Shown here: positions 1,002-5,358 of the stretch, one piece after another
Position numbering within the stretch: position 1 is the first letter of the stretch
Layout of the letters: each line of letters opens with the position of its first letter
Source: a virus
Lineage: Duplodnaviria > Heunggongvirae > Uroviricota > Caudoviricetes
DNA length: 5,358 nt
IMG/VR virus record: IMGVR_UViG_3300000059_000099
Span: 1-5,358 of that record
Direction: 5' to 3' (one strand)
Translations under genes and position numbers: made by a program
Notes under the pieces: model-generated
Told to the model about the DNA's origin: nothing
The model's database searches: none
Seen by the model: the letters and a program-made list of their open reading frames with translations, nothing else

Positions 1002-1226
1002 TCAGATCTCCAGAGCTTCGGCTATCTGACGACAACCGGCTTCATAGTCCGCATTGCTCAGCCCTTTGTCGCGCAACTCGACCTTCCTGGATTCATACTG
1101 CTCCCACACCGAAAGCGCGGCAGCCATACGCCCATCAAAAATAGGTTGGATCTCTGCAACATGTGCCGGGCGCCCATTCAGGTGCCAGCCGTTACGCCAG
1201 GTAATGCGGTCAATATGTCTTAACAT
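1002..1226 (-). CDS. Hypothetical 74-aa phage protein between the YdaT-like gene and the replication gene
   Basis: ORF in the track (MLRHIDRITWRNGWHLNGRPAHVAEIQPIF...). On the minus strand it is preceded by GAGGAAAGACCG then ATG, the same initiation cassette used at 3794. Tightly packed with its neighbours. No family recognised. Confidence 0.55.
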   Translation of the reverse strand: MLRHIDRITWRNGWHLNGRPAHVAEIQPIFDGRMAAALSVWEQYESRKVELRDKGLSNADYEAGCRQIAEALEI

Positions 1227-1265
1227 CGGTCTTTCCTCGGTATAAGTTAAACGCTGGTCAGGCGC

Positions 1266-2067: not shown

Positions 2068-2481
2068 ATGAGGATGAAAAATTTGATGCTTAGCGACCGT
2101 TTATCTCAAAGACGCAAACAGCTTGGTCTAACCCAACAACAGCTTGCTGATATGGTTGGAAGATCGAGTGTGAGCGTTTTTAAATGGGAAAGCGGACAAA
2201 ATGAACCAAAGGGCCAGAACTTGTTGGCTTTGGCCAATGCACTCAAGTGTTCTGCCACATGGCTGCTTTTTGGTGACGAAGACCAGGCGCCAACTCCGGT
2301 AGACGAATTACCAACAGAGCTGGATTCACGTCAAAAAAGATTGTTAGAGTTATTTGATTCATTACCCGAGTCAGAAAAAGAAAAGCAACTAATTGAATTA
2401 GAAGATAAAGTTGAAAACTTTAATCGTTTATTTGAAGAGTTACTGGTTACCAGAAAGAAACTAACCCCCACCAAAAAATAA
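2068..2481 (+). CDS. dicA: DicA-like HTH (XRE-family) prophage repressor, 137 aa from the first ATG; alternative starts at 2074 and 2086
   Basis: Translation ...MKNLMLSDRLSQRRKQLGLTQQQLADMVGRSSVSVFKWESGQNEPKGQNLLALANALKCSATWLLFGDEDQAPTP... closely parallels the DicA sequence recalled from Qin (KNLTIGERIRYRRKNL..., SPTWILFGDEDKQPTP, LPESE, KNFNKLFEELL). No good Shine-Dalgarno before 2068, so the message may be leaderless or start at 2074/2086. Confidence 0.85.
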   Translation: MRMKNLMLSDRLSQRRKQLGLTQQQLADMVGRSSVSVFKWESGQNEPKGQNLLALANALKCSATWLLFGDEDQAPTPVDELPTELDSRQKRLLELFDSLPESEKEKQLIELEDKVENFNRLFEELLVTRKKLTPTKK

Positions 2482-2519: not shown

Positions 2520-2530
2520 ACCCCAAATAC

Positions 2531-2580
2531 TAACTTTTGTTATAAAACATCTTGCACATAAAATTACCTTTAGTTATATT
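2531..2580 (+). promoter_or_regulatory. Second operator copy (TAACTTTTGTTA, 2531-2542) next to a near-consensus sigma70 promoter firing rightward (-35 TTGCAC 2552-2557, 17-nt spacer, -10 TATATT 2575-2580): a pL/OL analogue
   Basis: The 12-mer is identical to the operator at 2012-2023. Hexamers and spacing were read directly. Placement just beyond the repressor terminator mirrors lambda OL/pL. Confidence 0.45.
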
Positions 2581-2914
2581 CATTCCATCAACAACGCTTA
2601 CCCAGCGGCAGTTGTTCAGAAACACGTTCTGACAGCCGGAAAGACGGCACCAAATTTTGCGCGTCGGCGCCAACACGGTGACAGAGGGAAAGACTTCACC
2701 GGCATATGGCACATGTGTCGAAGCGGTCTGGATGGAAGCGGAGCCTTAACGCGTTGTCTCCATAGCAGGTAGCCGGAATGTGCAAGCCACAGCCAGGTAT
2801 GAGCGATTGATTCACCATCAAGGCGATACGGTGTGACCACCAGGGAAGAGTCCTGGCTACAACACGAGAGCGCACTTCATCGACTCAACTTTGAGCTTTG
2901 TCGTTAAATTTTGA

Positions 2915-3055
2915 AATGGCGGAGTGCGCTCCCGGTTGTGGTGAACAGGTGTTTAACGGGAACTCCCTGCCCGTTACCCGGTTCGATTCCGGGCGCCCAT
3001 CATCAATTTGCTGTGTTTAGTCTTTGCCCAGTCCGCACGATGGGCCATTTTTTCA
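2915..3055 (+). ncRNA. Candidate small structured RNA (speculative): two adjacent hairpins, one a tRNA-like T-arm, closed by an intrinsic-terminator-like hairpin
   Basis: Hairpin AACGGG-(9 nt)-CCCGTT at 2955-2975. Hairpin CCCGG-TTCGATT-CCGGG at 2977-2993, where the loop matches the tRNA T-loop pattern (GGTTCGATTCC). Downstream stem GCCCA / TGGGC with T6 at 3026-3053. Only a weak promoter upstream (TCGACT, 18 nt, TAAATT, about 2881-2910). No ORF support. Confidence 0.2.
3025..3054 (+). terminator. Candidate intrinsic terminator inside the non-coding stretch
   Basis: GCCCA (3026-3030) pairs with TGGGC (3041-3045) around a 10-nt loop, followed by CCATTTTTTC (T6 at 3048-3053). The stem is short but GC-rich. 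Confidence 0.35.
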
Positions 3056-3146
3056 CACAGCCAGGTTTTATCGCTGTGCCTGAGTCCCCAACAGGAGAGG
3101 CCAAACCCGCAGCGTGACACCAGGGAAAGACCGGAGGAAGTACCAC

Positions 3147-3214
3147 GCCTGACCAGCGTTGACCATGAGCCTGACCAGCTCAAAACAGGAAAGACCAGCC
3201 CGGGCCTGACCAGC
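3147..3214. repeat. Short direct-repeat cluster: GCCTGACCAGC three times (3147, 3169, 3204) with extra GACCA(G/T) copies, phased about 11 bp apart
   Basis: Direct reading of gcctgaccagc-gttgaccatga-gcctgaccagc-tcaaaacaggaaagaccagcc-cgg-gcctgaccagc. GACCA cores at about 3151, 3162, 3173, 3194 and 3208. Confidence 0.6.
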
Positions 3215-3334
3215 CCTGTACGGTCGTAATGGAAACATAACGACGCCGGAAACGTAACCGGCACCCTTTAGATAGCAAAAGACCCGCACAAGGCGGGCCA
3301 GTTACCCCGAACGGCGACCAAACCATTCGGATTT

Positions 3335-3358
3335 ATCACAAGTGACCAAACTTGTGAT
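3335..3358. other. Perfect 9-bp inverted repeat ATCACAAGT-GACCAA-ACTTGTGAT (operator-like palindrome or RNA hairpin), directly upstream of a degenerate gene-start cassette
   Basis: Positions 3335-3343 pair perfectly with 3350-3358. No U-tract follows, so it is not a canonical terminator. Confidence 0.5.
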
Positions 3359-3442
3359 GAGGAAAGACCAACGACACTGACGCTATGGAAGCTGATCAAT
3401 ATTCGCTGATCGGCTCTGAGTATACATTACCAAGGAGTCGCT

Positions 3443-3763
3443 ATGGAAGCGCGCACCATCCCAGTAACACTCTTTATTCATTATGCAACTTCAACTTTCA
3501 GCCACGAAAAGCTGCTTGTTGCGACGGTTGATATGTCAAAAAATTTTCCAGACAGGTACATCCTTCTGGAAAGCCGCGAAATTGAAATTACCGTCAACCA
3601 GCCCCAGCCAATCGACATCATCGGTTTACAGGTCGAGCAGCTGCATGAGCAAAAACAGAAAACAGCCGCCGACGCCCAACAGCGTATTGCTGCTATCGAT
3701 GACGAAATCCAGCAGTTACTTTGCATCGAATACACGCCAGATACCGATGAAATCCCCTACTAA
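3443..3763 (+). CDS. Hypothetical 106-aa acidic protein, first gene after the non-coding stretch
   Basis: ORF in the track (MEARTIPVTLFIHYATSTFSHEKLLVATVDMSKNFPDRYILLESREIEITVNQ...). Strong AAGGAG Shine-Dalgarno 5-6 nt before the ATG; ends 30 nt before the next gene on the same strand. No family recognised. Confidence 0.6.
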   Translation: MEARTIPVTLFIHYATSTFSHEKLLVATVDMSKNFPDRYILLESREIEITVNQPQPIDIIGLQVEQLHEQKQKTAADAQQRIAAIDDEIQQLLCIEYTPDTDEIPY

Positions 3764-3793
3764 AGACCACTGACCTGTAATGAGGAAAGACCA

Positions 3794-5358
3794 ATGACCA
3801 TTTTTAACGGCTTGTTAGAAGCGAAAAAAGGCGCGCTCAAAAACGGTGCGATCCCGGCGCTGGCCATCGCCATCGACGCCCCTAACAAAAAAGTTGCCGA
3901 GAACATCATCATCGGCAAATTGTGGGAAGCCTACCCTGACCACGGCGACAACTATTTCAAACCTAAAATCTGGGAAGATGCCCCGGGCCAACCGCGCCCT
4001 GGCGTCGGTGAGTTTGATGAGACGTTTGCCACAGAACACAGTTTTGATGGCGAAAAATGGGTAGTTAACACCCCCGCTGATTCAGATAGCGGTTCAGCAG
4101 ATATCGCACAGGTTAACGACCTGATGAAACTGCCTGCTCGTGAACGCTTCGCCGCCGTCCTGCTGTTCAGCCACGACGCCAACGAAGTCGACAGTGAATT
4201 GCTTGCGCAGACGCGTGAATACTTGGAGATGCTCGACAACAGTGATACTAACAGTGAGGATGAGGTTGACGCGTTTAACCGCATCGTCCTCGATGCCATG
4301 GTAGCGTGTAAGCCCATTGAGTACATGCATATTGCTGGATTGAATAATCTGGTACATGCAATTTTGGCAAGTTGCGATACCCAGGAACAAAACCCGACCA
4401 GTTGGACTATCTCCAAATTTATAAAAAAATGGGTAGAGAATCCCGGTAAACGCGATGAAATGCTGCCGGAGGTAAAACCACAAACAGCATCCGCACGTCC
4501 TTACCAACAGACTCACGCCACACTGGATCGTGAAATTGCCTGCGCCCTGTTACCTGTTGCCCCGGAAAAAATCACCCCCAGCATCCTGAAAGCGGCAGAC
4601 GAAATAATCAGTCAGGACAGGGAAGATTTTAAACGCTGGTCAATGGCCTTGCGCACAACGGATCAGATCCTTGCCTATGACCGCGCATCAGTATTCGGTG
4701 TTATTCAGAGCGCCCCCGCAAAAGACACGTACCACTTCCCACAATCCCTGCGCAGTCACATCGACAACTGGCTGCAAGCTAACGGGCAGCGTGATGCAAA
4801 TGCTGTTGAAGAGAAGCCAAAGGAAGCAGCACCAAAGGATGATGTAAAAGTCACCAACCACGGCGGCGGACGATTCTCAATTGATGGGATGATGTCAGAA
4901 ACACCCTCAAATCAGGGCGAAAAAAGCGAAGCAGCAAATGCTGGAGAACGTAGTTTGCAGCAGTTGCGTGAGCAGTTTGTCACGCCTCGCCATGTGTATG
5001 ACGTACCTGAAAATAACGCCGTATCACAGAGGGAACCTGCAGCTATTACCCCGGCAGAAGAGACTCCTCCACAAGAACAACTTAGCGAGCAGGTAAAGGA
5101 TCTGGTGCAGAACGTTGACGCGCTGGTTGAGCGGATCCATACCGAAGAGTACAAGCGGCAGAATGCAATCTCAGCTATCGAAACGGAGTTAAAGGACTCC
5201 GACGACACGGATAATCTGGCATTGTGGAAGAACATATTCAAAACCGATGAGCGCTTCACCAGTGCTTTCTCTCAGAATGGCGGCGGCACATCCATCAACG
5301 GCACTTATATAGCGATGAAAGCGACTCGCGAATTTGGGCCGTTTGGTATTGGCTGGGG
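3794..5358 (+). CDS. Large hypothetical protein, N-terminal 521 codons (continues past window end); C-terminal part in the window ends with ...INGTYIAMKATREFGPFGIGW, loosely reminiscent of the Rad52/Sak-type annealing-protein core (uncertain)
   Basis: Hand translation from ATG 3794 (MTIFNGLLEAKKGALKNGAIPALAIAIDAPNKK...) runs 521 codons to the window edge without a stop. GAGGAAAGACCA precedes the ATG. Absent from the track, apparently for lack of an in-window stop. The antisense track ORFs 3952..4416, 4094..4516 and 4912..5259 lie wholly inside it. Confidence 0.7.
   Translation, partial: MTIFNGLLEAKKGALKNGAIPALAIAIDAPNKKVAENIIIGKLWEAYPDHGDNYFKPKIWEDAPGQPRPGVGEFDETFATEHSFDGEKWVVNTPADSDSGSADIAQVNDLMKLPARERFAAVLLFSHDANEVDSELLAQTREYLEMLDNSDTNSEDEVDAFNRIVLDAMVACKPIEYMHIAGLNNLVHAILASCDTQEQNPTSWTISKFIKKWVENPGKRDEMLPEVKPQTASARPYQQTHATLDREIACALLPVAPEKITPSILKAADEIISQDREDFKRWSMALRTTDQILAYDRASVFGVIQSAPAKDTYHFPQSLRSHIDNWLQANGQRDANAVEEKPKEAAPKDDVKVTNHGGGRFSIDGMMSETPSNQGEKSEAANAGERSLQQLREQFVTPRHVYDVPENNAVSQREPAAITPAEETPPQEQLSEQVKDLVQNVDALVERIHTEEYKRQNAISAIETELKDSDDTDNLALWKNIFKTDERFTSAFSQNGGGTSINGTYIAMKATREFGPFGIGW

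Follow-up and report, generated by a model that had tools for sequence, protein, structure and literature searches.

RprA, a small RNA (sRNA) of the host, is tied to envelope stress, biofilm formation and stationary phase. The c4 RNA of phages P1 and P7 and the CI RNA of P4 are leader-encoded immunity RNAs, which are excised from an operon transcript by RNase P. A processed form of RprA, consisting of its last 47 nucleotides (nt), is active in vivo and regulates narP (PMC9262595). DicF, which is encoded in the dicB operon of prophage Qin of Escherichia coli K-12, arises through RNase E cleavage and termination, or through RNase III cleavage of a read-through RNA, and binds Hfq (PMC5069750). 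The 88-nt IsrB-1 and the 94-nt IsrB-2 of the Salmonella prophages Gifsy-2 and Gifsy-1 have been verified by northern blotting and are induced by starvation; they lie opposite sbcA (the exonuclease gene) and its upstream neighbour (PMC2330248), and IsrB is associated with ProQ (PMC5391140). Here we compare these systems with positions 2590-3440 of a 5,358-nt stretch of viral DNA (IMG/VR record IMGVR_UViG_3300000059_000099), referred to as the window, in whose coordinates all positions are given. The window represents the immunity region of an E. coli prophage that is lambdoid and Rac/Qin-like, and the part studied, referred to as the leader, lies between the repressor gene and the first gene of the early-left operon.

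We give a probability of roughly three in four to the reading that 2590-3440 is a non-coding leader of the early-left operon which holds several RNAs, is the counterpart of the dicB operon leader, and has modules that are kept by selection. A preliminary description of this DNA had offered structured RNA and decayed genes among its interpretations. The first has held, with covariation and homology pointing to three RNA elements on both strands, and the second has not. The short hairpins with GAAAGA and CUGACCA loops could serve as a protein-binding array, its third option, and a kinship with RprA and DicF was not among its suggestions.

The absence of a convincing open reading frame (ORF), from which that description started, is borne out: the longest ORF inside the leader has 96 amino acids (aa; 2974-3264, minus strand). 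In identical prophages the RefSeq annotation (PGAP) has zero genes between the repressor gene and the next gene, and ten leader ORFs found no family match in Pfam or PHROGs, the one match at E=0.017 being noise. GC content is higher (0.53-0.585 across 2601-3400) than at the end of the repressor gene (0.29-0.43 across 2301-2700), as had been judged by eye, and the plus strand of the leader has a strong excess of A over T. The best diverged relative is BUCT709, labelled a Stenotrophomonas phage and of enterobacterial lambdoid architecture, which aligns along the whole leader. Identity to BUCT709 is 76% in the leader (estimates run from about 72% to 76%) and about 58-59% in the two downstream genes. 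Of the 21 insertions and deletions (indels) relative to BUCT709, 18 are not multiples of three, and the leader mismatches are even across the codon phases (66/55/61), while the two downstream genes show an excess at third positions. Because the leader is non-coding yet better conserved than its coding neighbours, it is under non-coding constraint. Its plus-strand RNA folds better than shuffled sequences (z = -3.7), and the comparison with homologous prophages that had been suggested as a check gave compensatory changes in helices and no coding-type substitution.

These results largely refute the view that the leader is made of accessory or exclusion genes which mosaic recombination left behind as frameshifted pieces, functionless today, and the chance that it is right is now slight. 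The leader is indeed a mosaic, whose modules appear and disappear between relatives and whose length there runs from 366 to 1349 nt; an SE11 relative has a 500-bp insertion with a small coding sequence (CDS), and copies of a gene-start cassette without a gene, with ACG replacing ATG at 3371, would also fit decay. Against this, no leader ORF belongs to any Pfam or PHROG family, codon-phase bias is absent, most indels break the frame, and conservation is above that of the adjacent genes; helices with compensatory changes and strand-specific G.U pairs are also what decay would lose. Mini-ORFs that begin at the GAGGAAAGACC cassettes and a 48-aa ORF at 3385-3531 were rejected as coding candidates, since start codons are not kept (ATG, ACG or none) and hairpins of one type are found in more than one frame. 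The insertion in SE11-type prophages (about 500 bp; locus L002, 4151-4653) lies at about window position 2630 and carries an annotated 74-aa CDS, an apparent second convergent small ORF, and a ribosome site at the position of the ydfA start in Qin. It may be a moron, an inserted accessory gene, or else a toxin-antitoxin pair.

Kinship with Qin is seen from the promoter onwards. The early-left promoter (2552-2580, plus strand) has a -35 element TTGCAC/TGCACA, a 16-nt spacer and a -10 element TATATT, and scores 9/12 in a consensus scan. The near-consensus promoter with an operator copy that had been reported earlier is thus present, as TGCACA-16-TATATT at 2553-2580 with TAACTTTTGTTA at 2531-2542. 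The operator copy, AAATACTAAC..GTTAT (2525-2543, plus strand), contains TAACTTTTGTTA and repeats at 2012-2049 in the divergent repressor/cro promoter region, where TAACTTTTGTTA recurs exactly at 2012-2023. The promoter aligns with PdicB of Qin and with the promoters of relatives, and the probable start of the early-left transcript is near 2587-2589 (AUCAAC...). In prophages that have another repressor, homology to the window sets in at about 2580, which coincides with the transcription start and therefore makes the leader a unit of its own. The 5' stem-loop AACAAC...GUUGUU (2590-2616, plus strand) is kept in BUCT709, in which an A-to-G change gives a G.U pair on the plus strand, and the K-12 dicB leader has the same stem-loop with a compensated stem. 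As at the dicF locus (RF00039), a dicA/PdicB-type early operon here carries, ahead of its downstream genes, a predicted sRNA that ends at an intrinsic terminator (3026-3053). Since promoter, leader and a helix upstream of the sRNA are homologous to Qin, the window is a relative of a known non-coding locus with different cargo, and its leader is, judged by sequence, the counterpart of the dicB operon leader.

Part of this cargo is a structured RNA, here called module C, with its core at 2700-2856 (plus strand). In the model, a 9-bp hairpin P1 (2700-2720) and a variable long stem P2 are followed by an invariant core, GGUAGCCGGAAUGUGCAAG (2768-2786), and then by a variable hairpin; the UUCACCA loop of P4 is pseudoknotted to a downstream GGUG, and P5 (2840-2856) has the loop GAAGAG. 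Its 3' extension is a long closing helix around a variable insert, ACAAC-GAGAGCGCACU...AGUGCGCUC-GUUGU (2859-2941, plus strand). The closing helix covaries between phages (GAGAGCAUU/AGUGCUCUC versus GAGCGCACU/AGUGCGCUC) and has a homologous counterpart in E. coli K-12, in the segment that precedes dicF, and a GTTGTG motif is found within 260 nt downstream in 104 of 125 module C copies. In a set of 31 sequences, no two of which reach 95% identity, pairing is seen in 97.4% of cells and 10 pairs have changed on both sides; covariation is 0.313, compared with 0.133 in shuffled controls (0/500) and at most 0.08 with the partners slid. Module C is assigned to the plus strand because of its invariant U.G pairs. 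RNAalifold proposed a long-range helix, GCACAU/AUGUGC, which was rejected in favour of the local hairpin: neither of its strands varies, and it would not account for the A-U/G-C covariation in P1. Switching between the local hairpin and this helix is conceivable.

In a distant blastn search, 2700-2871 proved to be similar to unannotated DNA of widely differing phages, namely epsilon15-like Uetakeviruses (SPN1S, Tyrion, PAT1), Klebsiella phages and P1-like phage-plasmids (D6, SJ46). The invariant 19-mer GGTAGCCGGAATGTGCAAG occurs in at least 120 viral contigs, in 114 distinct variants. In species-representative genomes it has 24 sites, all in Enterobacterales save two metagenome bins (Oscillospiraceae and Bacillota), which are suspected to be mis-binned. 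With a covariance model, true copies score 113-158 bits (140 for the window copy), which makes module C a well-defined structured RNA family, and a search of 1 Mb of related DNA gave nothing else below E = 0.01 and no distant members. Rfam 15 returned only a chance miRNA match of 18 bits on 2690-2950 at E up to 10, and the literature, searched by name and by sequence string, held no description of the module C sequence or of the RprA-like phage RNA treated below. Module C may be among the 10,006 candidates in a published catalogue of viral structured RNAs (PMC10690425). Module C therefore appears to be a structured RNA family without an Rfam counterpart, and apparently one undescribed in the sources searched.

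Its surroundings connect module C with tRNAs. In 21 of the 125 copies (taken with 800 nt of 3' sequence) a tRNA-Arg(UCU) gene lies on the same strand within 700 nt downstream, and in the set of 114 variants tRNA-Arg(UCU) begins directly after the closing GUUGUG. In other copies, T-arm-like remnants or an sRNA of RprA or DicF type come next, and in enteropathogenic E. coli (EPEC) E2348/69 module C precedes a 113-nt 'pseudogenic tRNA' (acceptor stem GUUGUGG/CCACAAC) and then a DicF-like sRNA. GUUGUGG can thus pair upstream, in the closing helix, or downstream, in an acceptor stem. One possibility is a maturation switch, in which GUUGUGG would pair either with the upstream ACAAC or, as the acceptor stem of a tRNA-like element, with CCACAAC. 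As a working guess, module C would be a stable RNA released by tRNA-processing enzymes, which affects the maturation of its neighbours or acts as a decoy; its profile, with a pseudoknot and many invariant unpaired bases, is that of RNAs which bind a ligand, a protein or another RNA. In phage D6 (locus L005, 2333-2405) a tRNA recognised by Rfam at 58.5 bits, and absent from the annotation of the record, immediately precedes module C. Between dicF and dicB, K-12 carries a further tRNA-like module (locus L293, 2440-2610; GUGAUGUGGUGAAUGCGG...CACCUGGAGGCACCAGG...CAUCAC), which recurs downstream of module C in other phages (GGTGAATGCGCAGGCTGATGCGCG).

The tRNA-like hairpin noticed in the preliminary description, CCCGG-TTCGATT-CCGGG, is present in the leader at 2977-2993, as part of a T arm with an acceptor-like 3' strand (CCCGG-UUCGAUU-CCGGG; 2977-3002, plus strand). 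As a tRNA the element was rejected, with 0 genes in ARAGORN and 19.3 bits for tRNA-Sec in Rfam, where the cut-off is 47. It is missing from BUCT709, and similar T-arm remnants precede sRNAs with an RprA seed in other phages.

Directly downstream lies a predicted sRNA of about 49 nt (3005-3053, plus strand), with a seed, UGCUGUGUUUAGUCUU (3009-3024), a stem (3026-3030/3041-3045) and a U run (3048-3053); the candidate terminator that had been noted, 3026-3045 followed by a T run, belongs to it. The Rfam search that had been recommended gave RprA (RF00034) at 2945-3055 as the sole notable match, at 37.4 bits with a cut-off of 70. The match is confined to the 3' half of RprA, that is, its invariant core UUGCUGUGUGUAGUCUUUGCC and its terminator, and 3007-3053 corresponds to about positions 62-108 of the model with one inserted U and one G-to-U change. 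The 5' stem-loops of RprA and its rpoS-pairing region (CCCCUGA...AACGAAUU) were not found, and the T arm upstream aligns poorly to the model. The setting is not the chromosomal rprA/Rcs locus; it is a prophage operon leader between repressor and recombination genes. Relatives have kept the seed unchanged and rebuilt the terminator stem, for example as GCCCGGG-CGCC-CCGGGC or GCCCGC-UUUGCG-GCGGGC, and one sister copy, whose terminator is of the GGCGG type, reaches 61.6 bits with the DicF model of Rfam. The 16-mer of the seed, TGCTGTGTNTAGTCTT, is present in at least 120 viral contigs. In 74 of 87 distinct contexts a GC hairpin and T run follow within 80 nt, with terminator stems that are RprA-like (GCCC) in 38 contexts and DicF-like (GGCGG) in 34; a few contexts look like host rprA beside prophages, and seven are chance matches in unrelated phages. 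On this alignment, the predicted sRNA occupies the slot of DicF and is homologous to RprA in its processed 3' form.

Right after the U run comes an 'anti-seed', ACACAGC (3055-3061, plus strand), which is complementary to the start of the seed. ACACAG, ACACAA or CACACA occurs within 14 nt past the T run in 35 of 102 contexts, compared with a background of 0.5%, and in the leader fold the anti-seed pairs with the seed. Read-through transcripts would therefore hold the seed in a long helix, which is a plausible RNase III site; an A/U-rich junction is also present. In some viral-contig copies (L249, L259, L282 and L289) a long terminator stem encloses a ribosome site and ATG (GGAGGTGAAGATAATG), and such copies may be dual-function RNAs.

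When a phage integrates into a tRNA or sRNA gene at its 3' end, it carries this end. It could be argued that the tRNA-like and RprA-like pieces are inert relics of former attachment sites, moved here by recombination, as each corresponds to a 3' half (T arm and acceptor strand in one, the final ~47 nt of RprA in the other), some seed-bearing viral contigs resemble host rprA at prophage borders, and BUCT709 has not kept the T arm. However, the RprA-like unit is about 7 kb from the integrase gene and the prophage adjoins leuZ-cysT-glyW. A seed that is invariant in more than 80 contexts, stems that are compensated, and RprA-like and DicF-like terminators that are exchanged form the pattern of a functioning sRNA, which makes the relic explanation very unlikely for the two pieces together. 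For the T arm alone a relic origin is possible.

The third element, a predicted IsrB-like antisense sRNA, is on the minus strand (about 3412-3276). Two 9-bp stem-loops, SL1 (3358-3335) and SL2 (3330-3307), each with a UUGGUC loop, are followed by a GC hairpin as terminator (3299-3281) and a U tail (3280-3277). The perfect 9-bp hairpin that had been described at 3335-3358 is present, and it belongs, with one 'terminator' of the same description, to this minus-strand sRNA. In relatives the 9-bp hairpin is fully rebuilt around a fixed loop, and what are mismatches on the plus strand are G.U pairs on the minus strand; over SL1 and SL2 there are 29 G.U cells on the minus strand and 2 on the plus strand. 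The RNA is assigned to the minus strand because of this asymmetry. The three-hairpin fold is found in 23 of 23 variants, always more stable on the minus strand, with 91.4% of cells paired (100% in SL1) and 13 pairs changed on both sides, and it folds better than shuffled sequences (z = -6.55).

Rfam searches of the antisense region alone gave chance matches only, isrB excepted, and isrB scores 30.4 bits in one relative (L111; cut-off 35), in an alignment that runs through the UUUGGUC loop and the terminator. Structural and positional features of IsrB are found in the window: a UUUGGUC stem-loop (SL2), a GC-rich terminator and a U run, located opposite the early-left operon and beside the RecE-type exonuclease gene (phrog_2489) of a lambdoid prophage. 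A candidate antisense promoter, TCCATA-17-TATACT (3447-3419, minus strand; -10 at 3424-3419), overlaps the start of the next gene and sits in the most conserved block of the leader; a 5' end at about 3412 is inferred. The sense-strand order in Gifsy-2 is that of the window, with a terminator hairpin, a GACCAAA-loop hairpin, a second hairpin, the complement of the isrB -10 and the ribosome site of the gene, and the isrB -10 of Gifsy-2 (TAGAAT) is in the place equivalent to TATACT here. Together, these likenesses identify the predicted minus-strand RNA as a diverged relative of Salmonella IsrB.

The short repeats listed in the preliminary description may connect this RNA with the plus strand. 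GCCTGACCAGC occurs three times, and exact GGAAAGAC five times in the leader and a sixth time at the exonuclease start (3784). GACCAR has 13 occurrences where 5.4 are expected, seven of them on the plus strand within 3151-3371, and leaders of relatives contain GGAAAGAC 3-8 times and GACCAA 3-7 times. The three GCCTGACCAGC repeats are CUGACCA loops on covarying stems (ACGC/GCGU, GAGC/GCUC and GGGC/GCCC) at 3145-3159, 3167-3181 and 3202-3216, and 20 of 35 CUGACCA contexts have a stem of at least 4 bp, compared with about 7 expected. These hairpins lie in an A/C-rich conserved segment (3056-3230, plus strand) that also has GGAAAGACC motifs and of which about 125 nt (3056-3180) are ~95% identical to BUCT709 by eye, with 1-nt indels. 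In 45 leader variants GGAAAGAC occurs in two types of context. In the first it follows UGACAG as a G-GAAAGA-C loop, with stems that covary and have G.U pairs on the plus strand; the window has two such small hairpins (2635-2648 and 2684-2697, plus strand), each preceded by UGACAG. Of 102 distinct contexts of GGAAAGAC, 44 have three or more additional flanking pairs, where about 8 would be expected. In contexts of the second type, GGAAAGAC is the Shine-Dalgarno part of GAGGAAAGACC(A/G)AUG.

This second context is the gene-start cassette. As had been stated, a repeated copy is present, 3350-3375 resembling 3773-3798; the copy GAGGAAAGACCAAYG at 3359-3373 (plus strand) has ACG and no gene. AGGAAAGACCA is kept in 34 of 34 leader variants and full GAGGAAAGACCAA in most. 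The cassette GAGGAAAGACC(A/G)ATG starts four annotated genes, encoding a 136-aa protein, a 74-aa protein, the exonuclease and a DUF4224 protein, which lie on both prophage arms, each first after an intergenic gap. Its sites are 1226-1240 (minus strand) and 3782-3796 (plus strand, exonuclease) in the window and 2127, 4547, 7206 and 10381 in locus L001. The 26-nt repeat at 3350-3375 and 3773-3798 suggests that an IsrB-like gene was formerly directly upstream of the exonuclease start, as in Gifsy-2, and that the phrog_2479 gene, which now lies between, was then inserted there with duplication of the cassette. The UUGGUC loops are complementary to the over-represented GACCA(A/G) motifs, and the 5' part of the inferred antisense RNA is complementary to the shared gene-start cassette; repression of the early-left mRNA by loop-loop contacts is therefore proposed.

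Other functions can be imagined for these hairpins. The boxB loops of lambda are GAAAA and GAAGA, and the leader could act in cis for antitermination, as nut/boxB of lambda or put of HK022 do, with GAAAGA hairpins that bind an N-like protein or RNA polymerase and so let transcription past the internal terminators. The location directly after a PL-type promoter, the read-through of internal terminators that expression of the recombination genes needs, and the resemblance to boxB of G-GAAAGA-C loops with covarying stems speak for this. A search for a lambda-type nut site found no boxA (CGCUCUUA) on the plus strand with at most one mismatch, and the first ORF is acidic and has no arginine-rich motif. 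The place after PL and the small hairpin with a purine-rich loop are shared with lambda nutL, whereas the window is without boxA or an N-like protein and has many hairpin copies, 3-8 per leader and not one. Antitermination would also leave the sRNA, module C and the minus-strand RNA unexplained; for the leader as a whole we consider it unlikely, and it could hold for the small hairpins alone. A second proposal, that the hairpin arrays and A/C-rich motifs act as a sponge which titrates Hfq, ProQ, CsrA or a host sRNA, is favoured by the number of loop motifs per leader, the excess of GACCAR, the A-over-T skew of the plus strand and the association of DicF and IsrB with Hfq or ProQ. The loops, however, are not of the ANGGA type of CsrA, the weak rsmX matches sit on the minus-strand sRNA far below the gathering score, and the GACCA loops already have a specific RNA partner in the minus-strand RNA with its UUGGUC loops, so a sponge seems decidedly unlikely.

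Returning to the multi-RNA leader, several points weigh against it. Its RNAs are all predictions from sequence. The compared variants come from related prophages, so that shuffle controls overstate significance, although the slid controls are low as well. The gathering score of RprA, set at 70 bits for the full ~105 nt, is not reached in the window or in relatives (48-56 bits), and the DicF model (threshold 48 bits) has no match in the window at E up to 10. The region with which RprA pairs with rpoS is mostly upstream of the part kept here, and the phage RNA need not share this target. The sRNA terminator is weak, with a 5-bp stem, and its fold is only modestly above shuffles (z = -2.3); a weak terminator fits a leaky stop ahead of genes that need expression. 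On the minus strand, isrB (RF01386) scores 15.2 bits at 3277-3361 and so stays under its 35-bit threshold, the standard promoter scan found no promoter, and the candidate antisense promoter, the best minus-strand match in a relaxed scan, reaches only 8/12.

From the features described we infer how the leader is transcribed and processed, what its RNAs target and what the structured RNA does. A transcript starting at the repressor-controlled promoter (about 2552-2580) would carry on its plus strand, in order, the 5' stem-loop, the GAAAGA-loop hairpins, the pseudoknotted RNA of about 160-240 nt, the tRNA-like remnant and the ~49-nt sRNA. The RprA-like sRNA would be freed by termination and 5' processing in the manner of DicF and would pair with host mRNAs through its RprA-type seed, and its terminator would also attenuate transcription into the downstream recombination genes. 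The convergent IsrB-like RNA, antisense to the leader just upstream of the first gene, would act on the early-left mRNA through loop-loop pairing with the GACCA-loop hairpins and through the GAGGAAAGACCAAUG cassette, and possibly also represses other genes with the cassette. A bolder version, which we hold tentatively and put somewhat short of even odds, is that module C is an undescribed class of pseudoknotted RNA partnering tRNA, tRNA-like and sRNA genes, that the RprA-seed copy takes over part of the RprA regulon, and that the IsrB-type antisense RNA controls all genes with the GAGGAAAGACCAAUG cassette.

If the RprA-like RNA is active, an inducible prophage would supply a copy of the working end of a core host regulator to the cell. 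Prophages would then have a direct route for rewiring the physiology of their host, of which DicF is the one case studied well. IsrB has been known as a prophage RNA since 2008, with no function assigned to it in the literature searched; here the locus gives a testable hypothesis, in that the loops match both the GACCA-loop arrays and the gene-start cassette that several genes share.

Around the leader, the helix-turn-helix repressor gene (2068-2481, plus strand) ends in a bidirectional terminator hairpin (2480-2518), a perfect 15-nt inverted repeat flanked by A and T runs. The first early-left gene (ORF 3443-3763, plus strand; 106 aa), annotated in RefSeq, belongs to phrog_2479 (PHROG E = 3e-51) and has the Shine-Dalgarno sequence AAGGAG and its ATG at 3432-3445 (plus strand); the RecE-type exonuclease gene (phrog_2489) and a Gam-like gene follow downstream on the same strand. 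On the minus strand are a replication gene with iterons, the 74-aa gene, a YdaT-family gene (a CII-like activator according to PHROG) and a Cro-like gene. The iteron array (515-656), inside the replication gene, has a 23-nt period repeated 6.3 times with two perfect 45-nt units, and probably serves as the origin of the phage. Of the 5426 complete E. coli genomes searched, 475 (about 9%), ST131 strains included, contain near-identical DNA, and in SK1144, the one genome inspected for this, the prophage adjoins the leuZ-cysT-glyW tRNA cluster. A megablast search against phage genomes gave no match, while the distant blastn search did yield relatives, and the 106-aa protein found only close relatives among viral contigs. 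In E. coli 702/18 two adjacent type I-E CRISPR spacers match the prophage exactly (locus L291, 1440-1620); their protospacers lie within the leader (3132-3163) and within the 74-aa gene (about 1091-1122), and the former is followed by CAT, an ATG protospacer-adjacent motif (PAM) on the opposite strand. The 'Stenotrophomonas' phages BUCT708 and BUCT709 (OM816835.1 and OM816834.1) share an enterobacterial-lambdoid gene order and the leader, at ~72% identity to that of E. coli, and their host label may deserve a second look.

Among the systems named at the outset, the c4 and CI RNAs showed no sequence similarity to the locus, the search being that of Rfam, which should include the C4 family and gave no match to it; those RNAs act in sense on downstream sites, whereas the partner here would be a minus-strand RNA. 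As a working analogy, regulatory RNAs in an early operon leader, with tRNA-like features adjacent and short repeated complementary sites, are common to them. The likeness to the dicB operon of Qin is closer: a DicA-type repressor, a repressor-controlled promoter and a leader from AUCAAC with a 5' hairpin, of which the first 40 nt align (AUCAAC, stem-loop, CAGAAAC), then a long untranslated segment with the helix ...GCGAAAGCGCA...GUCGUUAAAUU...GUGCGCUUCCGGUUGUGG. The helix ACAAC-GAGAGCGCACU...GUCGUUAAAUU...AGUGCGCUCCCGGUUGUGG, at 2859-2941 in the window, lies just upstream of dicF in Qin; both have a predicted or known sRNA in mid-operon that ends at an intrinsic terminator, and Qin has about 570 gene-free nt around dicF. 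The window differs in having module C, hairpin arrays and the IsrB-like antisense RNA, and in being without ydfABC or dicB genes. Its sRNA carries the RprA seed UGCUGUGUKUAGUCUU and not the ftsZ-pairing UUUCUGGUGACG of DicF. RprA and the phage RNA correspond base for base in the core AUUGCUGUGUGUAGUCUUUGCC and in their terminator, GCCCA..CGAUGGGC-U run, while the phage RNA is encoded in an operon leader, has one G-to-U change in its seed and is without the 5' half (the stem-loops and most of the rpoS-pairing region). IsrB, like the minus-strand RNA, lies opposite the early-left operon near a RecE-type exonuclease gene and has a UUUGGUC stem-loop and a GC hairpin terminator; the window RNA has two UUGGUC loops to its one, is probably longer (~137 nt versus 88/94 nt), and lies upstream of the extra phrog_2479 gene and not directly before the exonuclease gene. 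An RprA-type seed in phages appears to be undescribed in the sources searched, and it is set here in a frame, a dicF-type leader with an IsrB-type antisense RNA, that is of a known kind.

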